Shown piece after piece: positions 1 to 20,000 of a DNA stretch of 20,000 nucleotides. The stretch is from Trichoplax sp. H2 (Eukaryota), in the NCBI GenBank assembly GCA_003344405.1, contig NOWV01000105.1, positions 240,175 to 260,174 of the forward strand. The letters are read 5' to 3'. The position numbers and the translations under genes are program-made. The number at the start of each line of letters is the position of its first letter. Position 1 is the stretch's first letter. The notes beneath the pieces were generated by a model. The model was given only the letters and a program-made list of their open reading frames with translations. It did no database searches and was not told the origin of the DNA.

Positions 1-748
1 ACGCTAATGCTAGACTATCCAATATTCAAGTTAAAAGATACACTTCAAAATTAAACAAATACTACTACAGTAAAGAGTACATCGAAGCACCATGACTTCT
101 ATTAATTTGTTATTACGCAGAAATTACGGACATAAGGCAAATGAATCATATTTTTAAATTACAATAGCTGTTTCTGCTTCTTAGTTAGCGGCTTTATACA
201 ATACTATGCCATTCTTGTTATAAAAAATCAAATGAAGTTAAATTTCGAACTATTTATACATCATGTAATACTTCAACATTTCACGTCTAATGGCGATAAA
301 ACTGCAACATAGAAAATATAGCCATTCTAGTTTATTGATTATTGTAAGCAAGCCAACAAGAAATTAAATTAGGACTATCGATCAATTAAAAATTTTTTAA
401 TTTTTAGTATTTAATTGACATTTTTAATACTATAGTATAACGCTGTGTAAAACTGACAACCATCTATAAAATTAAGAATGTTAATCCAAATTACTATTAG
501 TTTGCTGGGAAGTTTAAAGTCTACTTGTAAAATTATCGTAAGCTGAAAAGTAAATAAGCTTGTATTGTATTCCCTGTTTTTGAAGGGTTATCTGTTAGGA
601 TAGTTAAATTAATTTAGAAGAGTAATTTAAGAAGGTAAAGGCATTCTATAATAATTTTGTCTTGGCGCATATTTTATAAGTTCAATTTAAATGTACGATA
701 AATTATAAGCTGTATTGAAGATGGCTTTGAGGATAGGCTGTTTGCACT

Positions 749-1011
749 CTAGAAATTTTGTTCGTTGTTTTCTGACAGAATGATGTCATTCCTACCAATA
801 GTTTGCAAAGCCCGCTGCAATCGGCTAATGCTAACATTGGGATGTGCCTTTTTGTACCAGTAATTGAGCAATTCCATTGCCTGGTTAAAGACATGGTCGC
901 GATTTTGTTCCATTATAACCTTAACACAAATCGTTGGATCTAGGATGGCCGCTAACTGTGGCCAGTCTGTGCCAATAGAGCTTGCAATAGGGTAAAAATA
1001 CTTCCTAGGAT
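749..1011 (-). CDS. Gene A terminal exon: Death domain
   Basis: Acceptor ATGTAG|AT at 1012/1011 is in frame with the micro-exon. Translation DPRKYFYPIASSIGTDWPQLAAILD...AMELLNYWYKK...LQRALQTIGRNDII matches the Death-domain pattern (IG.DW..LA..L, L..W, L..AL..IGR.DI). TAG stop at 749..751. Confidence 0.87.
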
Positions 1012-1631
1012 CTACATAGTACAAGTAGAAACTTTACTATGAAGTACTATACGAGTATGTTGTAACAATTTCAATTGCAAATAAATTACTTGATTTTACA
1101 TGATATAAAGTACAATATTTACATAATGAGCTCTTATGTCGCAATTAGAGTTGAATAATCATCTGGTTCGCTATAATTATTTATGTAATGGTAATAATGG
1201 CATTAGCGATAGCACAGGTGGAACTGTACTTCTATTGTAAGACTAATAGAAATAAATGGCTCTAATTCGAATTTGAATAACTCTGTAAACGAACTACTTA
1301 CTGGACAAACAATGTACAAATAAATTAAGATTGAATATTTTTTAATTCATAAATCATTATTTATTATGTCAAGTAGCTTACTAGTAGCTAGAATATTCTA
1401 ATGACGATCTTAAAAATTCGTCAGTGATATCATTATCTAGTAAAACTGTATGCGATCATATCATCAGTGGCAAACGTAGCTTAAAGAATTACATCCATTG
1501 ACGAGGTAAGGTATTCCTATGTTAGAATTTACAAGGAGTAATTGCTCTTAATCATATTTGAATCGATCTACAATTGGATTACTAAATGCAATTGAGAATG
1601 ATTGATAGATATCAATTCAATAGAGGTTTAC

Positions 1632-1658
1632 CTTCATCTTTGGTATCTTTCCATCGGT
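1632..1658 (-). CDS. Gene A 27-nt micro-exon, linker peptide (D)RWKDTKDE
   Basis: Reads CTTTAG|ACCGATGGAAAGATACCAAAGATGAAG|GTAAAC. It is phase 1-1 and frame-preserving, and the same 27-nt exon is present in genes B and C. Confidence 0.85.
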
Positions 1659-1922
1659 CTAAAGTAGTGGAATAAAAATAGCAATAATCGATTAATAGTT
1701 CTATCGTTTAAGTAATCAATGCAGTAGATTAGTGCCCATAATTTTTGATAATAATCAACTATTGTTTACGCTATTACAAAATCACCTTACATTAAATAGT
1801 AAAATAGCTATGATACAGTACATTTATGTCTCTTTGCTTGCTCTAGCGTATGACTTTAGTTTATTATATCATAAAAAGTGATAATATAAGAATGAAGCTG
1901 CTGTTTATTCTCACATGCTTAC

Positions 1923-3947
1923 CTATCAAGAATTTTTCATTATAAATAATCCAATCGTTTAAAGATTGACTGGCAAATTCCATCTTACAATGCTTACATC
2001 GAATCCAATTTTGATCTTCTTCCTTGTATTCTTCAGTTATACTTGTTTGTGTATTACATTCACTACATTTGACGAAATATCGACAATCGGCCCCTTTAAA
2101 CTTAACCATCCTATCATTGACAGTAGAGATGAGTTTATTCTTGACAATTTCGTGTGGCCGTTTGACAAATATAGAATTTGTAACTTTATCGATAATCGAT
2201 TGACTCCTCTCGGGCTCATTTATTTTCTGATAGCAATATTGTAAACCAATATGAGATTCCTCTTTCTTGACTACAAGATAATGATTGTCATTTGCTAAAT
2301 AATATTTGGCACATTGATAGTATAATTCTACGTCCGTATTATTCCATTCCTTTAAACATGAAGATAACAAGCAATAATAAATTCCATCTGGAAGATATGG
2401 AATATCTGTATGCTCGTATCCGATGTAGAGCCAATCTGATTGATGATATTTTGATAAATCAAATGGCTTAACATCATATCGTAACAAATATGGAACAAAG
2501 TATTGACATTCTTCGCCGTTGTCGTTCTTCTCATTTGTAATTGAACATAGAATATCATAAGCATGCATGAGTGCCAATATAGTTTGCTTACTATTGTCAT
2601 CTAAATTAAATTTATAAATAGCATGATCAATGTATGATCTTGATAATTTTCCTCTTTGGCTTGCTATCTCATAGTCACGTTTTATCTGTGCACCTCCTTG
2701 TACAAAATCTTGTAATTGAATAATAGAACGAAATATATTTAATAACCAATCGACATTAGTTATAATAATTCCGTCGTCGCCTACTTTATCACAGTAGATG
2801 ACTTCTCCTAAATCGTGTAGATACATTAGCATAGCGATTAATTCATCATGGTTTTCATATAATCCGTATTGTTGAGACAAGTTTACTATTTGTTGCATTG
2901 TCATAATATTATGCACTTGAGAATGTCTAATTTGATTGATAATAGAAGATGCGGGTTGATTGTTACTGTTAGTAGGGAGCGATTTATTTAATATTCTAGC
3001 CATGATATACCATCGAATAGGTATAGGATTCGTAATAAATGGCAGCGATTGTACAAATGCCTTAATGATACCATGTAAACGAAGACAACATTGTCGACGC
3101 TGCTCTAGTGTCGACGGAGTACTATCAAGAGGATTGCAATTAAAAATAATACCAGAAGAATAGATATGATTGGCATAAGAAGGCATGCGAGACGTCAATG
3201 TAGACACAAATTGATTGAATCGAGTACGTCCATTTTCTTCATTGATAATACAATCGCCATGAGAAGCTACTAAAATAATAATAGGTAATGAATGCTGTGA
3301 AGGTGGTAAATGCTGTTCATCTTCACTTTTAATGTTGACATTGATGGTACTTTGGCTTGTATGGCCAGCTATGATTGATGTAAGCCATTCTTGCATAGCT
3401 TGTAAATACGTCGTTTTGAGTAATTGGTTGTTCCTTGTTGTTACCTTGTCGTTAATGTCTTGATTAATATTAAATACTAAAATATAAATACTATTGACGG
3501 AGATAAAGGGATAATGAGTAAGATGATAGACGGCATGACCTGCGAAATCCCATATTTTAACATACTGATTGTTTTCGTCTTTGTCTGCATTTTGATTTTC
3601 TATTGGATCTATGTCGGTTACTTGCTGACTGATGTTATCTTGACTATTGATACTTGTTTGGGCTAACTGTTGTATGACTGTCTTGACTTTATCGTCTAGT
3701 ATTTCAGTCCAATCACAACCCTCTAAGTTACGAATATTATAATATTCGGTCTCTACCATAATATCCAAATTCTCAGCCACTTGTGTCGGAGATGGATTGT
3801 CTAGTGGTTGCTTGGTAAATATTTTTCGAACAGAAGTTTTGCCCACATTGCGAGGACCAATGAACATGCCTCGTATTAAATGATTAAAGCAATGACCATG
3901 TTTTAATGCTTTGCTATATGCATTGTAATATTTCTTTTCTTGCAAAG
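1923..3947 (-). CDS. Gene A coding exon 2: Roc (Ras of complex proteins) GTPase + COR region + C-terminal CxxC-x19-CxxC motif
   Basis: The acceptor TTCTACAG|CT at 3948/3947 joins in frame after an 80-nt intron (3948..4027). Motifs: P-loop GPRNVGKTS (3832..3858), G3 WDFAG (3538..3552), G4-like VASHGD, COR-like MLMYLHDLGEVIY, ITNVDWL and YFVPYLL. Donor ATAG|GTAAGC at 1923/1922 is phase 1. Confidence 0.9.
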
Positions 3948-4027
3948 CTGTAGAACAACAAAATACAGAATAGGGTTACGGTTATCCATCGCTCTCTCGT
4001 CTACTACTGTATTAAAACTCCAATTAC

Positions 4028-6146
4028 CTTTCTCTTGTACGTGTTGATTGTTATGACTGCCGTCAATAGTATTTGCTGGCGCTGTAACGTTGTTGATTTG
4101 ATTCGGTTGAAACCGTTCAACGGTACTTTTGATCCAATTTCTCGCTGTTGATGTCGACGATTTCGGCTTCCGGAGAGTGATATCGATATTCTTTTTGGTC
4201 CATTTAACTAGGCGATCATTTCCGCTTAAGGTTGCGATATACAGTGACTTCTTAAAGTTATCCACAGCCTGATCGTACTTGCCTTGGCGACGATAGACAA
4301 GTCCTATGTTGTTATATGACTTCGCAACGTGGGGATGATTGTGACCAAGGACTGACAATCGAATTTGCAGTGATTTGTCATACATATCCACAGCCTGATC
4401 GTACTTGCCTTGGCTTTTATAGACATTGCCTATGTTGTTATATGAGTTGGCAACATCAGGATGATTATGACCAAGGACTGACAATCGAATTTGCAGTGAT
4501 TTGTCATACATATCCACAGCCTGATCGTACTTGCCATGGTGACGATAGACAACTCCTATGTCGTTATATGAGTTGGCAACATCAGGATGATTATAATCAA
4601 GGACAGCCAATCCAATTTGCAGTGACTTGTGATACATATCCACAGCCTGATCGTACTTGCCTTGGCTTTTATAGACATTGCCTATGTTGTTATATGAGTT
4701 GGCAACATCAGGATGATTGTGACCAAGAACTGACAATCGAATTTGCAGAGATTTGTCATAAATATCCACAGCCTGATCGTACTTGCCTTGGTCATCATAG
4801 ACAAGTCCTATGTTGTTATATGAGTTGGCAACATCAGGATGATTATGACCAAGGACAGCCAATCCAATTTGCAGTGATTTGTCATACATATCCACAGCCT
4901 GATCGTACTTGCCTTGGCTTTTATAGACATTGCCTATTTTGTTATATGAGCTGGCAACATCAGGATGATTGTGACCATGGACTGCCAATCCAATTTGCAG
5001 TGATTTGTCATACATATCCACAGCCTGATCGTACTTGCGTTGGCTTTTATAGACATTGCCTATGTTTTTATATGACTTCACAACATCAGGATGATTGTGA
5101 CCAAGGACTGACAATCCAATTTGTAGTGACTTGTCATACATATCCACAGCCTGATCGTACTTGCCTTGGTCATGATAAACAAGTCCTATGTTGTAATATG
5201 AGTTGGCAACATGGGGATGATTGTGACCAAGGACTGCCAATCCAATTTGCAGTGACTTGTGCAACATATCCACAGCCTGATCGTACTTGCCTTGGTGACG
5301 ATAGATAACTCCTATGTTGTTATATGAATTGGCAACATCAGGATGATTGTGACCAAGAACTGCCAATCGAATTTGCAGCGACTTGTCATACATATCCACA
5401 GCCTGATCGTACTTGCACAAGCGATCATAGACAACTCCTATGTTATTGTATGACCACGCAACATCGGGATGATTATGACCTAGGACTGACAATCGAATTT
5501 GCAGCGACTTATCATACATATCCATAGCCTGATCGATCTTGGCTTGGTCATGATAGACAATTCCTATGTTGTTATATGACTTCGCAACATGGGGATGATT
5601 GTGACCAAGAACTGACAATCCAATTTGCAGTGACTTGTTATGCATATCCACAGCCTGTTCGTACTTGCACAAGTCCCAGTAGACGCACCCAATTTGATGA
5701 TAACTATCGGCAAGACGAGCATCCTTTTCGTCTAACCATTTTAATTTCATTTCCAACGATTTCTTACCGTCTTCCAGTGCTCCGTTGAAATCCCCTTGGC
5801 GTCTCTTAATCTCGCTTTCTCTTTGTAAACATTGAGCCATGCTCACTTCATCTTGCAGTTTAGTAGCCACAGTTTGTCCCTTATCACTCCATTCAACAGC
5901 TTCCTTGAATTGATATTGTAAAGTGTAAATGTCACAAAGACCAAGATAAATATCACATGCAAGTCGATCAATATCCGCACTAGGATTCGACAACGAAGCA
6001 ATCGCATCGACAGCTTGTGTATAACAAGATAGTCCGTCCACCAACTGGAAGGCAGTCTTGCATGAGATGCCCTTTTCGTACAGTGATTGTATACGGGTAT
6101 GGTGAGGAAGCACACTCGTAGAACAGACAGATTCATCATCAGCCAT
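4028..6146 (-). CDS. Gene A coding exon 1: TPR-repeat domain (about 3 divergent N-terminal TPR-like units plus 12 x 42-aa kinesin-light-chain/nephrocystin-3-like TPR units) of a TPR-Roc-COR-Death protein
   Basis: Lies within ORF 3903..6158. The ATG at 6146 (MADDESV) follows an acceptor-like TGCAG|GAAAAG at 6153/6152. Repeat consensus is VANSYNNIGxVYxxQGKYDQAVDMYDKSLQIxLxVLGHNHPD. The donor GAAAG|GTAATT at 4028/4027 is phase 1 and sits at the same position as the donor in gene B. The start codon is uncertain because an upstream exon is likely. Confidence 0.88.
4230..5740 (-). repeat. Intragenic tandem repeat: 12 near-identical 126-bp units encoding 42-aa TPRs
   Basis: The anchor 'tccacagcctg' (one variant 'tccatagcctg') recurs at 4261, 4387, 4513, 4639, 4765, 4891, 5017, 5143, 5269, 5395, 5521 and 5647. 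The period is exactly 126 with no indels. Outer boundaries are approximate. Confidence 0.97.
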
Positions 6147-8934
6147 CTTTTCCTGCACTCAATTCAAAAATATGTTAGTTAAAGGCTTGAACGACAGGTT
6201 AGAGACAAATAAGATTCAAATCAAGCTTCGTTGCAACCATTAATTGCTAATCATCGGATCGATATTATCTCTGCGTATTAATGAGGTTATGTCGGAATAG
6301 TTGTACTTGCGTGCCAGTCGTAGTTCAACAGAACAACATCAATTATTCCATTATACACAATTTTCAAGCATCAATAAATCAACTTCTACAATATTGCCTA
6401 TCTATTCCGCATGGAAGATTATCCGAAAATCATTCAATCAATCTCTGTAGATAATTACTGAAGACAACGCTATCGGACAATCGTGTGCTTACGTGTACAT
6501 TAACAAAATGCACTCCAGCTTACAAATAGATTATACTCATAATCATAATAACCATCAAACAACAATCTTTTTATTCTAATAGACAACGGTAAATAAATGC
6601 TAGCCACATCAATGATAGTGTAAAATAAGAAAGGATGCTTGCAATACAGTTTCGTTGGCGTCGTTTACCTATCTTTAATTTCTATTTTTACTTGAAATAC
6701 AATGTATAATGATGGATACCTAACGAAATAGGTTACTTACCAATGGATGTTTTAAAAATCGGCTAATAACAACTTGATGATTTTGCTGTTACGTAGATTT
6801 AATCCTACCAATCCGACTGCGCGCTGCTTATTGCAACAGGAGCTAATGGATAAAAAGAGAACGACAGGTGACATAAAACTCTACTCGGCTAAACAGCTCT
6901 ATCCAACTGCATATACACTAAATACACGCACTGATCAGCACATCTAAATACTACAGTGTATCAGCGATTACAGACTACTAACTCATTGGTTATTTCCTAA
7001 CTATAAAAACTCCTTGCAAAGTCCTGCACGAGGAAGGGCACTATTGGTAACCATGAAGCTTGCTTGCTAGAAATCCCAGTTAAACCTGCGGCTATGACAC
7101 GCTTTTATTCGTAAGTAGTCCCTATGTGGATGATGCGATAGCCGACGGATAAAGGTAAATAAATAAAATGAAGGTAAGGTAAATAAATAAATTAGGTTTC
7201 TTTGCAATGATTTGTGCATAGTCATAAGACCTTATGAAATTAGAACAGCTCTAATTTGTATTAGTTTATTAAATACGAGTTTAAGATTAACCTACGAGTA
7301 TCTTCCCTACCGAATTTCTTATGTCTTGTTAGCTTAGTAAGCCGTCAATCATATTATTTGCTAAAGTTTGATGCCAATGAACTATTGCATGGGTAGATAC
7401 AAGTTACCAACAAAATATCGTTCTCTCTAAGTAAGGATAGTTGACATATTATCCTTATCCATTTTCTTCTATTACAGTCTATCAATAAAGCTATCATTTT
7501 ATCAACAATTTGATTGCAGTCTACCGTACGCTATTTATTGTCGTGGCTCCGCAGTCTGTGTTCATTGCAATTCAATTTGATAATGAGCTTGTTACTGCCA
7601 TATAAAACTCTCAAATTATCAACTATGAAATTCATCAAGTAATAACTTAAAGGAGCGACTGTTCAGGATAGGTTTCTGATAGTAAACTGCAAGAAAGAAT
7701 AGCGATGAATATTATATAACATACTGTAGAGACATAGAGAAATGATAGCAGTCTATTTCAATATACATCATTGACATTATCCGATCCATTGAATCTACTG
7801 TAGCTCAACAAAGAATGCCATAAATTTAATAAAAGATATTGCTTGTAACAAATATTATCATTTTGTATACAACGTTCGTAGTCCGATGATGAATTAATGA
7901 TAGACATTTGCATGGTCAAATTGTAAGCCATACTAATAAAGATTGTACAATCGCAATCATGAATTTTTTAGACTAACCAGATACATCAACAACGGATTAC
8001 AACATTGGATATGCAATAAAACGGATCAATCACTTGACTGATCAGCAGTAGCATATTCTACTTTAATTGGCAACAGCCATCCAATACAGGCATTGCTGTA
8101 CAACAAGGCACTATCCTCTCAGCACTTACGCTCGCTGCATTCTCGCGCCAAAGAAGCTTCTTAGTCAACAAGTTCAGCTTCGATCCATGCTCACAGAACT
8201 CATTCTCAAGGATAGGTAATCATTTCTACGAGCATATCTCAACAGTTTTCAACAAACAAGAAGTATTTTATGATCGGTATTGTGTATGAACTAACTAGAG
8301 TTGATACTCCAACCGTATGTAAAGTTCGGATCACTCTGACTAGTTTTCGAATACTGACAAAGCTAAGTCCTTACTACCACTCATTCGTTTATTGATAATT
8401 ACAACGGCTTTTATATGTGCGCCGTCAACACTTACAGTGTAACGTTGTACAATACATAGTTTATGATATCCATATCTAGAATTAGGTAGACTTGTAAATT
8501 GTAAATTAGTCACGATAATTGATTCTATAATTATACAGCGTAAGTTAACTATCAATATGGACTGTAGATAATAACGCAGTTATCATCCATCCATCTTAAG
8601 CGTAGCATTACAAAATACATATATAGAAATACTGTAAGACATATCAATCGGAATAGAGTAAAGTAAGATCAAATTAAAATCTCCTGACAGGGTTGGCGTG
8701 AGTACTGTTTGGCCTGATTGCAAATTGCATGCTATCGATACAAGATGTAACCCTTCATACATACTGGAAGTACTGCAATCCATAGCAATTCCATATGATT
8801 ACTACCTTAATTTTATTCAATAATTAACAATCAATGAGTTGTTAATATACACCATTTAAAGAAAATTTTTAGTATACTTTTATAAACTGTTTGACAAATG
8901 ACAGTAAAAAATCAACGGAATACAGTAGCGCACG

Positions 8935-10062
8935 ATGAAGATGATATCAAGCGATTCAGCAGATGGCTTAGTTATTGGACTCATCGTCGATGATGATCGC
9001 CAATTAAACAGTGGCCAACAGTAATTTCTGCTATCGGAAGAACAATCTTCATATTAATTCAAGGAGGCTAAAAGATGTAACATAAAAAGAATCATCTACG
9101 CTTACTTCTCGTATGCACTAATTTGCACTACTTTAACATAAAAAGAAACATCTATGCTTACTTCTCGTATGCACTAATTTGCACTACTTTAACATAGATG
9201 TCGAAGGCACGCTAATGTTGGCTTCAGACGATAGAGCTAAAATGGACATGGTTAGTACTTTCATCAACTACATGGAGGAGAATTGCCAAGTCTATGCTAT
9301 ACATGCATGCTTACAAATTATTTCTAGTCAAAATAATATACCAATCTCAGCTCTAAAATGCTGAACAGTGCAAAATGGAACAGAGAATTTGGACAGTCTC
9401 CACGCTGTACTATGTAATTTTAAGTAAACTACTTCTTAAAGCTTCCTAAACTGTTTCTACATGAAGTTGATACCAATGCAATAAGTTCAAAACCAATATT
9501 GAGCGGTTAACTGGTAATATCAGGGTAACTTGCTCAACTCTGGTTAAATCAGGTGATGACATTTTACAGGTGCACTAGCTGTACTACCATCTTGTACCAA
9601 GTACTAACTCGTCTAAAATAATCAAGACAGGAGCATTCTCGTGGAAGCTGATATGCTATCGAAACTGCGATTTGATGCAGTACACTAATGTATTCTAGCT
9701 TATAAACTGTCCGTTTACTGTACAAGACTAATCAATTTCTCCATGAGGAGTACTAGAGTAGCTTCTCAAACTTGGGTAGTAACAACAAAGGTTGTACCCA
9801 CTCCATGAGCAGTAGCGCTCGACGATTACAGGAAAGGTACCGATGGTGCAATTTTAAACGAACCATAGACGGACTCTACTTGATTTTATTCATTTGATCT
9901 ACCATTGACTCAAATTATTCAAGAGTCTTTTGCTCGTTTTAGCTCATACTGTCTTGATGAAATGTCGTACAAATTGGCAGGACAAGCCTGGAGCGAGATG
10001 GAAAGTTCAAATACAGTAAAGCAATTTCGTCTTAATTTCGTACTTCGTAGCAATCATGACTA
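8935..10062 (+). pseudogene. Possible decayed plus-strand gene relic of uncertain identity
   Basis: Coding-like stretches are broken by stops (GLVIGLIVDDDRQ..., VEGTLMLASDDRAKMDMVSTFINYMEENCQVYAIHACLQ..., MLSKLRFDAVH*CILAY...). An intron-like segment GTAAC...CACTAAT...TTTAACATAG (9077..9197) would join the flanking frames in phase 1. Confidence 0.25.
9078..9196. repeat. 56-bp direct tandem duplication (about 2.1 copies, 2 mismatches)
   Basis: The unit taacataaaaagaa(t/a)catcta(c/t)gcttacttctcgtatgcactaatttgcactactt starts at 9078 and 9134, and a partial 'taacata' starts at 9190. Confidence 0.95.
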
Positions 10063-10663: not shown

Positions 10664-10920
10664 CTAGGAATTTTGTTCTTTTGGGATAATAATATCATTT
10701 CTGTCAATCGTTTCCAAAGCGTTCCGCAATAGATTAAGAGTAGCATTTGGGTATTTCCTTCTGTACCACTGATTAAGCGATTGGATGGCACTGTTATAGG
10801 TATGACCACGATGTTTTGCTTCGATAACCTCAGTATCAATCGTTGGATCTAGGACTGTAGCTAATTTTGTCCAGTCTATACCAACACAACTAGCGATCGA
10901 GTGAAAATAGTTTCTAGGAT
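10664..10920 (-). CDS. Gene B terminal exon: Death domain (not shown in the supplied ORF track)
   Basis: Acceptor TTATAG|AT at 10921/10920. Manual translation is DPRNYFHSIASCVGIDWTKLATVLDPTIDTEVIEAKHRGHTYNSAIQSLNQWYRRKYPNATLNLLRNALETIDRNDIIIPKEQNS*. About half of the residues are identical to the gene A Death exon by hand alignment. TAG stop at 10664..10666. Confidence 0.87.
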
Positions 10921-11315
10921 CTATAAGGCACGAATGAATATATTACCACATACGTCATCTTAAAATTACTAATTGAAATTATCTTATCATGGACTAGCCG
11001 AACCCGCATACCCAGTTGTGTGCTATCAATATAACTCAATAATATAAGGAAGTACCACATGATTTAAATGTAGATACATTTGTTTTAATTTAACCTAATT
11101 CATTTCACGTATTGTTGGATACTCGCAAGTAAAGTAGTGGAGTAGTAGTTTATATGTTCTAATTATAATCTGAAATATTCGTTGGCATTCTAATTAGCTA
11201 GCAGAACTTTTTGCGATAATATCATACATAATAATCACTTCTAGTCACTATTATAATTAAATGGGTAAATTAATTACTATAATTATGAATAGAAAACGGT
11301 TTAATTGACACTTAC

Positions 11316-11342
11316 CGTCATCTCTCACATCTATCCATCGCT
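11316..11342 (-). CDS. Gene B 27-nt micro-exon, linker peptide (E)RWIDVRDD
   Basis: Reads CCTTTAG|AGCGATGGATAGATGTGAGAGATGACG|GTAAGT and is homologous to 1632..1658 and 18090..18116. Confidence 0.85.
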
Positions 11343-12042
11343 CTAAAGGAATGAAATAAAGAATAGGAATAATAAATTGGCAGTTCTATGGTAGTTGAAT
11401 TGAAGCAAATAGTAAAAGTGATGCACAGTAAAATGAAATGTACACCTAGAAACGGTTTACAGAGAATGCTCTCTTCCTCTTTCTCTATTTATGCGCTCTA
11501 AAACCTCTATATATGCGTGTCCTATAAAGCTATGGAACTGATTAGCTACGATCTAAAATTAAGAACATTCTCATACTTCTGATGGTAATGAATACTTTTG
11601 ATGTTACAAAGCAATTGCGGAAAAAATTCAACGAGTTCTATATTGCCAAGTAAACAGACTATAATAGATGAACTGGCTATACCGAAAGATTGCTATCTAT
11701 TTATTATTAATAAGAAATATATGTAAATTATAATTAGTAAATACTACCACTTCATCAACTATTATAGATTGTACAATAATTATTGTAATTTGAGAACTAA
11801 ATTAAGATGGAGATCATTGCCACTCTACTTAATCTCGGATGTGATTGAGCTCGATTGCATTAGTGTTTTGCTACAGATTAAGCAAAGGTGATGTTGTAAT
11901 AATCTTATTGTAGTGTGTAGGAACGTTTTAACCATCGAACACTTGATATTACGAATAACTTAGGCTAGCGCTCTTATCAGATACATGACGGTAAAAAAAG
12001 ACGTGGCAATAACAAAGCTACTGGCTGATTTTATATCCTTAC

Positions 12043-14193
12043 CTATCGATAACTCTTTATTATAAATCATCCAATCGTGGAGAGATTGACTAGCAAATTG
12101 CTGAGTACAATACTCGCATCGAATCCAATTGCTGTCTTCTTCTCCATATTCTTCGGCTATACTTATTTCTTCATTACACTCGTTACATTTAACGTAAAAT
12201 CGGCAACGAGCCCCTTGAAATTTTATCATCCTTTTATCCACAATGGAGATAAGCTTATTCTTGACAATATCGTGCGGCCGCTTGTTAAATATAGAATTCT
12301 TAACTTTGTCGATCACCAATTTACCAATGTCCAGCTGATTGATTTTCTGATAGCAATATTGTAAACCAATGTAAGGCCCTTCTTTCTTAATTATCAGGTA
12401 ATGATCATCATTTGCTAAATAATATTTAGCGCATTGATAATATAATTCTACAACCTTGTTATTCCATTGTATTAAACAAGATGATAGCAGGCTGTGATAA
12501 ATTCCATATGGAATATCTCCTTTCTCGTATCCGATGTAAAGCCAATCTGAGGCATGATATTTACGCAAATCAAAGGGCTTAACATTACGTGGTAACAAGT
12601 ACGGAACAAAATATTGCCACTCTTCTGTAGTATCATCCAGTTCAATTCTAATACAAAATAGGATATCATAAGATTCCATGAGTTTCAATATAATTTCCTT
12701 ACTATTTTCATCTAAATTAAATCGATTAAGGGCGTTATCAACGTATCTTCTTGGTAATTTTCCTGTTTTATAGGCTATATTATAATCTAGCTTTGCTTGT
12801 AGACTTCCTTGTCGATGATCTTTCAATTGAATAATGGCACGAAATATATTTAATAACCAGTCGACATTAGTTATAACCATCCCGTTATCGCCTATTTTAT
12901 CACAGTAGATTACCTCTCCTAATTCGTGTAGATACATTAGCACTGCTCTCAATTCATCATAACTGTCATATAATCCACATTCTTGTGATAAGGTTACTAT
13001 TTGTTGCATAGTCATAATATTACGTACTTGAGTGTCTTGAATTTGGTTAATAATAGAAGACATGCCTTGATTATGATGACTACGGATACATTTATTCAGT
13101 ATTGTAGCCATAATATATCGTCGAAAAGGAAATGGTTCATGAATAAATTGTAATGAAAACGAAAATGTCTTAATAATATGATGTAAACGATTGCAACATT
13201 CTCGGCGCTGATCTACTGCTGATGGGCTGCTATCATTAAGATTGCAATTGAAAATAATATTAGAAGAGTAGATGCTACTCGTATAAGACGGCATAGAAGA
13301 GATCAATTCATCGACATACTCATCATATCGACGATTTCGTTCTTCTACTTCTGTTGTACAATCACTGTGAGAAGCTACCAGAATAATGATAGGTAAGGAA
13401 AATTCTGCATCCCTGTCGTCAATATTAACGTAAACTTGATTTCGACTGCTGTGGCAACATATTATTGATACCAGCAATTCTTGAATAGCTTGCGAATAGG
13501 TCATATTGAGTAATTGCCCTTCTCTTGTCTTAACTAGATCTTTGACACCTTGCTCAATACTAAATACAAGAAAATAAATACTATTGGAAGACCTAAATAG
13601 ATATTGACAAACGTGGTAAATAGCTGGATCACTGAAATCCCATACTTTCACATATTGATTATCTTCAAATTTGTCTTTATTTTCGTTTATTCTAGGCGCA
13701 TAAGATTCTGCAAAACTAAATTTAGACTCAGTCTTATTAGAAGCATCTGCTATATTATCACTACTCATAGAAGACTGCTTATCGTCATCCTTTACAATGG
13801 TTAAAGATAGATTATCTGCCATTGTTAGCTGATCTTGTTGACTTTTATTTGATTTTTGCATGTCGTTATTTTGTTGACTTTCTAGCTCTGCTACGGAAAA
13901 TTCCCTTATAGCGGTCTTGATTTTATCATCTAACACCTCAGTAAAATTATATGTCTTTGAATTTTGAAGACAATAAAATTGATTGAATTCAGTTTTCAAT
14001 ATGCCATCAGAATGATTAACAACTTTATCTGGAGGTTTATTCTTGTTTGATTCTTGTTGAGTAAACACTTTCGCAATAGATGATTTGCCAATACTAGGTG
14101 GGCCAATAAACTTACCATGTATCAAATCATTAAAGCAGTAGCAATTATTCAAGGCTTTATTGTATACATTATAATATTTCTTTTCTCCTAAAA
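12043..14193 (-). CDS. Gene B coding exon 2: Roc-like GTPase (degenerate G3) + COR + CxxC-x19-CxxC motif
   Basis: Acceptor TTTACAG|TT at 14194/14193 (104-nt intron) gives VLGEKKYYNVYNKAL, matching gene A ALQEKKYYNAYSKAL. Motifs: P-loop GPPSIGKSS (14078..14104), WDFSD (13628..13642), VASHSD, LMYLHELGEVIY and YFVPYLL. Donor ATAG|GTAAGG at 12043/12042. Confidence 0.9.
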
Positions 14194-14297
14194 CTGTAAA
14201 TTGAAACGGAAGTTAGAAGAATGATACACAGATTAGACAGTATTTATTTATATTGGCTATGTAAATTAACATACTAAAAAATCAACTACAAGTTTAC

Positions 14298-15816
14298 CTT
14301 CATCTTCTGTGTGTCGAATAATATCACTATCAGGATTGCTACCGTTACTATTCCTATTTGTTAACGTTGTAAGATTGTTAGCATCGGTGCCTGTAAACAC
14401 TCCAAACCATCTAACCAAATCGTTGAAATATCTTTCAGCTAGTGTTGTACTTTGATAATAATGTGCTTGTTGCTGCTGACGAGTTGTTGCGACATGATTT
14501 CTAGTCATCTTAACGTAGGGATGATTCTCGCCTAAAGCCGGTAGGATAGCTTTAATTGTCTTGTGAAACATAGAAAGTGCCTCATCGTACTTGCCCTGTT
14601 CCTTATAGATAACCCCTTGGCCGTTATATAATTCAGCAATAAAGCTATAATCGAAATCGACGGCTGACGGTCGAATTTGCATGGATTTATTATATATCGA
14701 AAGAGCGTCTTCATACCTGTTTAGATCTATATATATTTTTGCTATACCAAATAATGTCTTTGCAATTTCGGGATGATCGCGATTAAGCGTTGATAGTTGC
14801 ATTTGAAGTGATTTCTCAAGGATACCACTGGCAAGATTGTATTGGCCTTGTTTGACATAGACATTTCCAAATTTGCGATATGCTCGAGCAATAGCAAAAT
14901 GATTTTTTTGGGGAAAGATTGTATGTCTCATATCTAGTGACAAGTTATATTTAGAAATAGCCTGTTGATAGTCCCCATTATTGCTACCAACATCCCCCAT
15001 ATGCTCATAAGTGTCCGCAATATGGGCATGATTTTTAGAAAGGAGTGCTAATCGAATGTATAATACATTATTTAGCATCGTAAAAGCCACTTTATGCTGG
15101 CCAAGATATGAGCGACAAACTGCCATTATCTGAAGTGAATTCGCTATAAGAAGATGACGATTACCGAATAAGCGCAATCGAATTTTGTGAGCAATATTTA
15201 GCATAGAAAGTGCCTTTTTAAAATTGCCTTGCCGCACATAAAAAATTCCTTCCGTATGATAGGAGTATGCGATATCGGGATGGTTTTCATCCAATACCTT
15301 CAATCGGATTTCTCGTGCTTTTCGAATCATAGCCAGCGATTCTTGATATTTGCCGCCATCGTCGTAAATACGTGCAAGTTGATGATAGGAATGAGCAACA
15401 TCTGTATGGAGGTATGTACCTAGGTAGTTTATTTTTATATCCAGAGATTTGCCACAGCATTCGAGCGCTTTATCGAAATCACCTTGCCATCTTAAAATTA
15501 AAGCTTGCTTATCTAAATAATGGGCTATTCTGATTTTATCTTGCAGTTTGTCAGCTAGATATTTCCCTATATCGTAGTATGATTTAGCTGTTTCCCATTG
15601 ATTTTTTAACGTGTAAATATAACAAATATGAAGATAGATATCACATCGAAGTCGATCAATATTATCGCAAGGAGTAGATATCGATTCAATATGATCTAAG
15701 GCTTGTCTATAGTGAATTAGACCTTCCTCTAGATTATAAAAAGTAACATATTCTTGGCCCTTTTCGCAAAGTGATTGTATATCATTCGGAAACTGTGTTA
15801 ATAGATCTGCATCCAT
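14298..15816 (-). CDS. Gene B coding exon 1: TPR-repeat domain (divergent N-terminal units plus about 7 diverged 42-43-aa TPRs)
   Basis: Lies within ORF 14266..15846. An acceptor-like AAACAG is immediately followed by ATG at 15816. The N-terminus is homologous to gene A (IQSL.EKG, IDRL.CDIYL, A.KLQD, QGDF..ALE..KSL). Repeats follow H..IA.SY...G..Y..QG.Y..AL. Donor GAAG|GTAAAC at 14298/14297 is phase 1. Confidence 0.87.
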
Positions 15817-17264: not shown

Positions 17265-17542
17265 TTAGCAATTTTCGACCATTTTTTCTTCGACTTGGTT
17301 AGCTATAGTATTGATTTTCATCTTACGTAAAGCTGCAATAACTACAGAGATATCTGCATTTTGACCAGCGCTATTTTTCCACAATATTAGAACTTTATAC
17401 ACCTTATCGTAGCGACTATGTTCCCGATTTAATTTAATTTCATCAATTTCTATGCTGGATAAATGCAGCAAGACTCCTAAACGAAATAAATCATTTATAT
17501 GGAGTTGCTTAGCTATGATGTCGAAGTACACAGTATCCATTT
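17265..17542 (-). CDS. Gene C terminal exon: Death domain of a different subtype
   Basis: Acceptor AATATAG|AA at 17543/17542 (phase 1) joins in frame. Translation EMDTVYFDIIAKQLHINDLFRLGVLLHLSSIEIDEIKLNREHSRYDKVYKVLILWKNSAGQNADISVVIAALRKMKINTIANQVEEKMVENC* has Death-fold features (LG..L.L...EID.I, L..WK...G..A, AL..M). Confidence 0.8.
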
Positions 17543-18089
17543 CTATATTGAAATAAAATTTAAAATATTAGCCACACTCCAAGTCTTTAGGGTTGTATCT
17601 GATCTGTGATGTAAATCTAATACTAATCTTGAGCAATTCTTTTTCAGAACAACTGTAATTTTAATACTACTTATGCAGGGTTTATCAAAATAAAACTGGA
17701 ACTAATACTACTTGCTAGTATGGTCTTTTTAATAATCAATATTGGGTTAATTCAATTTTATTATTTTCATGAATTCTTACAAAAGTTTGTCCAAAAAATT
17801 CTTAAAGTAAATTAAATCAAAGAGTTTATTCATGGTTGACTGATTATTTTACAGAGTAGATCACTAATAGTTTGAATATTTTACTTGCAATTCTCTAAAA
17901 CTAGTTTGTGTTATCGTTAACTAGCAGAACTTTATGCAATGATGTCAAAGACTAGATGAAAGTATTACATTTACTTAAGGTAGAATTCTTATAGAGAATA
18001 TGCTCTCAATATTACTTCAATAATTCCAAAATTAATCACTGTAAACAATTTTGAAAGAATTAAATGATAATAATTTAGTAGAAGCTTAC

Positions 18090-18116
18090 CATTATCTTTT
18101 ACATCTTTCCATCGCT
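18090..18116 (-). CDS. Gene C 27-nt micro-exon, linker peptide (E)RWKDVKDN
   Basis: Reads GTTTAG|AGCGATGGAAAGATGTAAAAGATAATG|GTAAGC and is homologous to the micro-exons of genes A and B. Confidence 0.85.
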
Positions 18117-18844
18117 CTAAACAAGTAAAATAAAACAAGAACAATCGATTAATAGTTTTGTAGTTGCTTTGATAGAAAGAGATTGTAAAATCATAAGCAT
18201 GTCAATGAAATGTATCACGTATATTTAGAAATAATTTATAAAAAGCTCTCTCTCTCTTTCTCTGCAGGTACCTATACATGCAGATATGCTATAGTAAGTT
18301 TTATATCCTGTACAAAGCTGAGGAATGAATTGGCTGTCATTTGATTTTAAACGGTGTTCTCATTTACTAACATAGAAGAATATAATATGCTTCAAAGTAA
18401 TGATGGATAAAATCTAGCCATTACTATTTAACACATAAATGAATACAGCAGGATTAAATTCTCACCTCGAAATAGTACAAAATTATAATACGTTTTTAGT
18501 CACATGAAATATACATAAATTAGAAAATTTTTATAATTAATCCAGTGCAGCACACAAAGCGATAATTAAGGTAATCTTCTAAATTACCTACATGATAGCA
18601 TACATTTCCTTTGCTTTAATTACTTCAGCACATAATTCTGCTTATTTATATCAATGTTTTTATATATAAATAAGATAATCAAAAATAGAGTCATGATAAT
18701 CACGATGTAAAAATAAATGTGCTAATTATTAAGAATACAGTAAAAGGAATGCGTAATGGAAGAGCTCTTGCTTATAGTACATTGCAATCGTAATAATGAT
18801 AATAAAAAGAATATAAAAGCTATAAATTGTGTTCACATCCTTAC

Positions 18845-20000
18845 CTATCCATAATTTTTCATTATAAATCATCCAGTCGAGAAGAGATTGACTAGAAAAC
18901 TGCATACTGCAATATTCACATCGAATCCAATTTATATCTTTTTCGTTATATTTATCGGCGATACTTGTCTCTTCACCACATTCACTACATTTAATGTAAA
19001 ATCGACAACAAGCTCCTTTAAGCCTTACCATCCTACCATCGACAATCGAGATTAGTTTATTCTTAACAATATCTTGTGGTCTGTTATGAAATATAGAATT
19101 CTTAACTTTGTCAATAACCGATTTGCCGATTTGTGGATGATTTATTTTCTGATAGCAATATTGCAAAGCGATGTGAGATTTCTCTTTCTTAACTATAAGA
19201 TAGTAATCATCATCTACTAAATAATATTTGGCACATTGATAGTATAATTGTACTTTTGTGTTATTCCACTCTTTTAAACAAGAGGATAACAGACAATAAT
19301 AAATTCCATCAGGAAGGTATGGAAGATCGATATGTGTGTATCCAATGTACAGCCAATCTGATACATGATATTTTGATAAATCAAATGGCTTTACATCATA
19401 ATGCAACAGGTATGGAACAAAATATTGGCAGTCCTCTCCATTATTACCCTTTTCATTTCTAACAGAGCAAAGAATATCATAAGCTTCCATCACTTTTAAT
19501 ATGGTTTCTTTACTAGTTTCATCTAAATTAAATTTTTTAATAGCATAATCGATGTATATTCTTGATAATTTTCCTGTTTGGCTGGCTATCTCATATTCAC
19601 GTTTTATTTGTAGACTTCCTTCTAGACGATCTTGTAATTGAATAACTGAACGAAATATATTTAATAACCAATCGACGTTAGTTATAATAATTCCGTTATC
19701 GCCTACTTTATCACAGTATATTACTTCTCCTAAATCATGCAGATATATTAGCATTGCTTTTAATTCGTCATCACTTTCATATAATCCACATTCCTGAGAC
19801 AAAGTTACTATTTGTTGCATTGTCATAATATCATGTACTCGAGAAGCTCGAATTTGATTCATAACAACCGAGATCGCATGATTATGATGGTAACGGATAG
19901 ATTTGTTTAATATTGTAGCCATAATATACCATCGAATAGGAATAGGATTACGAATAAATGGCAATAATTGTACAAATGTCTTAATAATATAATGCAAGCG
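18845..20000 (-). CDS. Gene C (partial, truncated by window edge): COR region + CxxC-x19-CxxC motif of a third paralog
   Basis: The frame is open from the window edge (RLHYIIKTF...) and strongly similar to genes A and B (PIPIRWYIMA, YLHDLGEVIYCDKVG, YFVPYLL, PYLPDGIYYCLLSSCLKEWNN). Donor ATAG|GTAAGG at 18845/18844 is at the homologous position. Confidence 0.9.

Follow-up and report, generated by a model that had tools for sequence, protein, structure and literature searches.

A placozoan Roco gene whose TPR array appears to evolve like the repeats of fungal HiC NLRs

Can an animal gene that does not encode an NLR diversify a binding surface in the manner of the repeats of fungal HiC (high internal conservation) NLRs, for which proteins such as Podospora Pa_2_10340 provide the precedent (Dyrka et al. 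2014, PMC4986451)? The question is raised by a tandem array of TPR units in a 20,000-nucleotide stretch of Trichoplax sp. H2 (contig NOWV01000105.1, positions 240,175 to 260,174; this whole stretch is referred to below as the window, and positions are counted from its first letter). We consider it probable that the array is the diversifying ligand-binding solenoid of a young placozoan TPR-Roc-COR-Death subfamily, that it evolves like fungal HiC NLR repeats, and that the protein is a putative sensor. The evolutionary part of this proposal, re-dealing of units coupled with selection on the groove, is one in which we have good confidence; toward an immune role, predicted from the architecture, we lean only slightly.

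A database protein of 1477 aa (P0001, source name 'Nephrocystin-3 [Trichoplax sp. H2]') maps to four exons of the window. These exons, the units of the array and a neighboring gene that serves as an internal control are as follows.

4028..6146, minus strand: exon 1 (aa 1-706), comprising the N-terminal helical region, the TPR array and a linker (P0001 exon map and open frame)
5598..5723, minus strand: TPR unit 1, a divergent N-side cap, the first unit in all seven arrays
4338..5597, minus strand: ten inner 42-aa TPR units with 87% DNA identity and variable groove codons 6, 13, 16 and 17 (plus 9 and 10)
4212..4337, minus strand: TPR unit 12, a divergent C-side cap
3948..4027, minus strand: 80-nt GT-AG intron between the TPR exon and Roc (P0001 map; joint 3947-4028 in RNA run X19)
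1923..3947, minus strand: exon 2, Roc GTPase and COR (Pfam Roc 5e-11, COR-A 4.8e-11)
1632..1658, minus strand: exon 3, 27 nt (P0001 map; joint 1658-1923 in RNA run X19)
749..1011, minus strand: exon 4, Death domain and stop (Pfam Death 2.9e-10; P0001 map)
10667..15816, minus strand: neighboring gene of the TPR-Roc-COR-Death type whose TPRs are degenerate and not homogenised (internal control)

The Pfam domains of the gene are TPR_10/TPR_12, Roc, COR-A (above cut-off) and Death, and Roc carries a G1 P-loop, a DxxG (G3) motif and a G4-like motif as read from the sequence. Roc is followed directly by COR in one polypeptide and one exon, and by this domain order we assign the gene to the Roco proteins; the Roc, COR-A and Death matches, together with the P0001 exon map, bear out the proposal of an initial sequence-only reading that this is an animal Roco gene. 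No NACHT or NB-ARC ATPase is among the domains found; the switch is Roc-COR, and hence the protein is not an NLR of the STAND class. The TPR units are of the 42-residue kinesin-light-chain type, as indicated by their 42-aa period, their two-helix structure and the TPR_10/TPR_12 match. The genome holds 55 COR-A matches, 42 of them over the cut-off, and for T. adhaerens the published record contains at least 17 ROCO genes, whose domains include TPR, LRR, CARD and Death (PMC4104024). Two CxxC pairs follow COR near the end of its exon (about 1980-2070) and are found in each of the three Roco frames that the window contains; they form a possible zinc ribbon before Death.

Evidence for splicing comes from contigs of four runs (one RNA, three DNA) of the 24 listed, compared over positions 600-4200 of the window only. 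Contigs of the RNA run skip 3948-4027 and 1659-1922, in each case with GT-AG ends, and those of the three DNA runs do not (0/3). The sequences of the RNA contigs depart from the window by several percent, and a Roc insert absent here is present in one of them; these contigs fit sister copies or alleles rather than the window copy exactly, so the splicing they record is that of the subfamily and not necessarily that of the window copy. Of this insert, which the sisters share with the RNA contig, about 165 nt are missing at 3599-3607 of the window, where the frame is open.

Tandem Repeats Finder places a 126-bp repeat at 4259-5668, with 11.2 copies and 86% matches. Read in frame, the array consists of 12 units of 42 codons at exact spacing, the first beginning at 5723 and the last ending at 4212 (minus strand), all inside a 751-codon open frame. 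The 12 units of 126 bp described by the sequence-only reading are confirmed, and its three lists of residues (unit position 6; position 13; positions 16-17) agree with ours letter for letter. Its statement that the units are nearly identical even at synonymous sites was too strong: pairwise differences among the ten inner units are 6-25 of 126 nt (mean 16.4, 87% identity), pS is 0.21 per site, and cap units 1 and 12 differ by 33-57 nt. Homogenisation of the array is moderate. Identity to the consensus is 87.1% for the inner ten units and 82.9% for all 12 (our own calculation, not T-REKS), and with the former value the array lies above the threshold for high internal conservation, at least 85% internal identity over at least 100 aa (PMC4986451). 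Mean differences of 14.6-17.3 at lags 1-6 give no support to a two-unit higher-order period in the window array. A stop-free antisense frame of 350 codons over the array (4256-5308, plus strand) is most likely a by-product of the repeat.

Variation among the ten inner units is concentrated. Columns 6, 13, 16 and 17 are the top four of 42 in variability (entropy 1.6-1.9 bits), the residues leading at these sites are H, D, N, R, V, W and S, and the patch N13-K16-S17 occurs four times in the array. The claim that variation falls at a few positions of helix A holds for these four columns; weaker variation at positions 9, 10, 19, 35 and 37 had been overlooked. The exposed helix-B columns 20, 22-24 and 30-34 are nearly invariant.

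Aligned with the designed consensus TPR, the units need no shift, and hence their positions 6, 9, 10, 13, 16 and 17 correspond to TPR positions 2, 5, 6, 9, 12 and 13. These six are the ligand contacts of HOP, and positions 2, 5, 9, 12, 13, 33 and 34 are the most variable, concave-face positions of TPRs (PMC1261162). The six-site groove set was taken from the literature and is independent of the window data; within the inner units of the window array these positions hold 54% of the nonsynonymous differences (permutation P 1e-5), and the 31 inner units from six other arrays predict how the sites rank in variability (Spearman 0.77). We infer, with the support of these observations, that the variable sites sit on the concave ligand groove, the face being assigned by register and not by model coordinates. 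The register agrees with the earlier proposal of a concave binding groove: the variable sites are TPR positions 2, 9, 12 and 13 and, more weakly, 5 and 6. A single-sequence model (pLDDT 84.7, pTM 0.63) assigns unit residues 2-17 to helix A and 21-39 to helix B. Among natural proteins of solved structure the nearest are kinesin light chains (E 1.9e-39; rmsd 2.2 Å to 7ai4 over 240 columns), and the Podospora repeat structures 4y6w and 4y6c are matched with E values of 6e-25 and 3e-23.

Statistics on selection were computed from 41 inner units of the 55 in the family, the 14 caps being dropped. In pairwise counts the groove pN/pS is 1.8 in the window array, 3.7 in the 31 other units and 2.9 overall; the other 36 codons give 0.28-0.69, and groove dN/dS is about 3-4 for the family. 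With codon models of our own implementation, M2a is preferred over M1a in the other arrays (2dL 53-59), where sites 6, 13, 16 and 17 reach posteriors of at least 0.999 and sites such as 25 are flagged too; in the window array alone the comparison is not significant (P 0.56-0.66). When the four sites were preset from the other arrays and tested in the window array, omega was about 3 (P 0.007 and 0.001), and the six-site set gave omega about 2 (P 0.09 and 0.02). Since tree-based tests are inflated by recombination, we obtained a null distribution for a groove omega of 1 by coalescent simulation, with the tree replaced at intervals of 1-42 codons. Against this null the window array yields P 0.04-0.07 for six sites and 0.014-0.023 for four, the other arrays 0.007-0.016, and all 41 units 0.003-0.006. 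If only synonymous sites from within the local patch serve as the reference, P becomes 0.08-0.18, and with all 41 units 0.04-0.06; an allele-count statistic over the 41 units gives P of about 0.02. Diversifying selection on the groove codons of the subfamily is well supported, and for the window array taken alone the evidence is suggestive. The excess of per-codon dN/dS foreseen by the sequence-only reading is thus present at the groove of the 41-unit family and borderline in the single array.

How much of this is peculiar to the subfamily can be judged from other TPR genes. We looked at 14 other long TPR frames of the genome, each with 23-44 units: in 12 of the 14 all four of these sites rank within the top six for variability, and groove pN/pS is 0.70-1.49, mostly at or below about 1. 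Since the same sites lead in most of the long TPR arrays sampled, the location of the variation is generic, and it is the excess over pS that marks the subfamily. The neighboring gene provides a stable control: its TPR exon and a T. adhaerens model are 99.2% identical and align collinearly over 506 aa. The 14 frames are themselves single-frame genes of 42-aa TPR units, with no other frame of at least 250 aa in the 7-10 kb fetched. Two of them (C708:165032-168865, locus L050, 27 units; C426:17477-23749, locus L059, 44 units) show 87% internal identity, groove pN/pS of 1.4-1.5 and the same variable sites, and could possibly represent a second, switch-less repertoire.

Turnover of the units is best seen by comparing gene copies. 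Sister arrays were drawn from a search in which 150 of 1481 candidates were scored, and their flanks were then fetched. At least six further arrays belong to the subfamily, with 8, 6, 10, 5, 8 and about 7 units versus 12 in the window. Their flanks are close to those of the window copy: identity is 95-97% over the N-terminal 420 nt, 93-97% in Roc-COR and 81-93% in the linker, with an N-terminal pS of 0.03-0.05 in four of five comparisons (0.10 in the fifth) and a COR pS of 0.04-0.11. Across arrays the caps hold their positions, and the inner units show no diagonal of best matches, the best sister unit for any window inner unit being 8-17 nt away. The positional caps themselves differ by 8-27 nt between copies and the linker is only 81-93% identical, so it is unit number and order, not distance, that show turnover. 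Distances between window and sister units (16.0-19.5) are about those within the window array (16.4), which argues for a single pool of units, and 40 distinct groove sextets occur among the 41 inner units. These comparisons support the view that close gene copies in one assembly differ in the number and order of their units and probably in the patches exchanged.

Exchange of short patches is suggested by the pattern of association within units. In a PHI-like test, incompatibility between sites grows with their distance (P 5e-5 for the 41 units; 0.016 and 0.08 for the window array). Positions 10, 13, 16 and 17 are mutually associated, and positions 6 and 9 show no association with other groove sites, which points to exchange of short patches. 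Against this, the longest exact tracts common to the window array and a sister array measure 38-54 nt, and shared ancestry could also account for the pattern. We suspect that patches are exchanged within and between genes by unequal crossing-over and gene conversion. All 12 TPRs lie in one exon, so only recombination at the DNA level can re-deal the units.

Some of the sister arrays may be haplotypes and not separate genes, since the copy on contig C190 shares its downstream flank with the window and includes a 20-N junction. On that contig (L032:5084-5103) a spacer of 20 N, and no Roc-COR, separates a 10-unit from a 6-unit array; the two may be haplotypes of one locus, which would amount to allelic polymorphism in repeat number. 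The copies are not all alleles, because four of them share an upstream 5-kb cassette, more than two alleles explain. The contig ends of family members showed no exact overlap. The array of about 7 units is frameshifted after unit 1 (contig C345, L035:5003-5131, in the second unit), and this gene is either a pseudogene or an assembly error. Homologue searches restricted to proteins of 1218-3475 and 410-1306 aa, and a search of representatives, gave only Trichoplax sp. H2 proteins as members of the subfamily, a result that does not imply absence of the array from a second strain; the T. adhaerens models recovered are 38-40% relatives or belong to the neighbor gene.

The nearest known counterparts are the fungal HiC TPR NLRs (PMC4986451; Ament-Velasquez and Saupe 2026, PMC13449251). 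Like the window gene, they have units of the kinesin-light-chain type with high mutual identity, and like its family they have selected sites on the concave face and variation in repeat number, with exchange between genes a probable further point in common. The analogy appears exact at the level of repeat evolution. The architectures are different: the switch is a Roc-COR GTPase in the window gene versus NACHT or NB-ARC in the fungal proteins, the order is sensor-switch-Death rather than effector-NOD-sensor, the host is an animal, and variation in number is seen between copies in one assembly rather than between isolates. The earlier suggestion of a fungal-type mechanism of repeat shuffling with selection holds for the differences in unit number and order between copies, probably for the exchange of patches, and for the groove excess of the family; selection within the single array is borderline.

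The brown-algal LRR-ROCO and NB-ARC-TPR candidates (Zambounis et al. 2012, PMC3341825; Teng et al. 2024, PMC11378527) share with the present family the expansion of Roco genes, a repeat sensor at the N terminus, positively selected sites on the concave face, reshuffled repeats and a proposed role in immunity. In the algae each exon holds one repeat, exon shuffling and alternative splicing take place, and the Roco sensor is an LRR; the window gene, unlike these, has its 12 TPRs in one exon and carries a Death domain. The expansion of ROCO genes in Trichoplax has been described, for the same family and the same set of TPR, Roc-COR and Death domains (Civiero et al. 2014, PMC4104024), in an account that lists domains; in the sections drawn on here, homogenisation of the repeats, selection on the groove and shuffling are not taken up. 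Animals, too, have HiC NLRs (PMC13449251), and the main text of that survey does not refer to Trichoplax, placozoans or GTPases. Diversity in TPR length is known from coral TPR-CHAT genes (PMC12314368), and the portion of PMC8195603 that concerns us has nothing on placozoans. We found no account of repeat evolution in placozoan TPR-Roco genes in the open-access literature, although the supplementary survey of animal HiC genes in PMC13449251 could include them. The protein belongs to the Roco family and not to the NLRs, and in an animal host its array appears to evolve as the sensors of fungal HiC NLRs do; the mechanism is already known from fungi and brown algae, and the advance therefore lies in the host and the architecture.

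We envision that unequal crossing-over and gene conversion, acting within and between single-exon arrays, re-deal units and patches, and that diversifying selection on about four groove codons would retain new binding surfaces, as in fungal HiC NLRs. The architecture suggests that the protein could be a cytosolic non-self sensor in which a ligand bound in the TPR groove would shift the nucleotide or dimer switch of Roc-COR and the Death domain would recruit a cell-death or defence adaptor. Recognition would depend on a composite groove and not on a residue-by-residue cipher. A bolder version of the proposal, which we regard as unlikely, is that placozoans run an anticipatory non-self repertoire on Roco GTPases, with units re-dealt fast, possibly mitotically within clones or single animals, to give clone-specific sensors coupled to Death-domain killing in the service of symbiont control or allorecognition, the composition of the units predicting the ligand.

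Several other explanations deserve consideration. Similar 126-bp units might simply expand, contract and convert under neutral turnover while the framework is purified and the groove merely drifts, as in all TPRs. Groove positions are the most variable ones in TPRs generally (PMC1261162) and in 12 of 14 other arrays, M2a is not significant in the window array, P against patch-only pS is about 0.05-0.18, and one sister array is frameshifted, all of which fit such drift; it is made improbable by the rejection of omega 1 at the family groove under the recombining null (P 0.003-0.006 pairwise, about 0.02 for allele counts) and by the near invariance of the exposed helix-B columns 20, 22-24 and 30-34. 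Slightly less probable again is a fast-evolving, paralogue-specific adaptor of the kinesin-light-chain kind that serves endogenous partners (cargo, cytoskeleton, phagocytosis) and has no non-self role. A conserved host partner does not predict arrays of 5-12 units or 40 sextets in copies 3-5% apart, nor does the C-terminal Death domain sit well with such a function, even though kinesin light chains are the nearest natural solved structures (E 1.9e-39; 7ai4) and chemotaxis and phagocytosis have been speculated for placozoan ROCOs (PMC4104024).

The variation in order and number could also be largely a product of the assembly, with repeats collapsed or chimeric and haplotypes scaffolded as paralogues. 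Family members do lie at contig ends, a stretch of 20 N connects two sister arrays, 578 of 1482 31-mers recur in the window array or its sisters, and the read contigs were compared over 600-4200, outside the array. Yet the window array contains no N, its frame is open and its period exact; its longest exact internal repeat is 87 nt, and none of 1414 99-mers recurs in the window or sister arrays. The linker adjoining unit 12 is letter-identical in contigs of all three DNA runs, one of which is possibly the source of the assembly. The 5-kb upstream cassette is present in four copies, beyond two alleles, and per-codon allele diversity is independent of order. We judge an assembly origin to be quite unlikely. 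TAL effectors, whose fold is different from that of TPRs, consist of similar repeats with few variable residues that form the RVD code. A TALE-like code had been suggested for the array. A modular cipher of this TALE or PPR sort, in which every unit would recognise a single element of a linear polymer (nucleic acid, glycan or peptide) by means of two to four residues, would account for a near-identical scaffold with few variable polar, charged or aromatic residues and for recurring patches such as the fourfold N13-K16-S17. Of the alternatives it is the one we find hardest to credit: the 41 inner units carry 37 different four-site words, so the family, in contrast to TAL effectors, has no small alphabet, and the variable sites are those of an ordinary peptide-binding TPR groove.

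If the array is indeed a diversifying solenoid of re-dealt units under groove selection, the fungal route of repeat shuffling to receptor diversity would exist in an early-branching animal, on a GTPase switch of the LRRK2 family. Candidate intracellular sensors would also be named for an animal whose published immune inventory includes no LRR-type NLRs, RIG-I or cGAS-STING and, in the part relevant here, does not mention Roco (PMC6321704). The finding bears on how clonal placozoans diversify recognition and on whether Roco proteins act as pattern receptors.

The surroundings of the gene show further features. Two more TPR/Roc-COR/Death genes stand in tandem with it, at 10667-15816 and 17265-20000; the third of the series is cut off where the contig stops, and a 94-95% identical copy of it lies on contig C506. 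About 370 bp upstream of the window copy (8278-8646) are missing from three of the sister cassettes, and a 56-bp repeat of 2.1 copies is found at 9078-9196.
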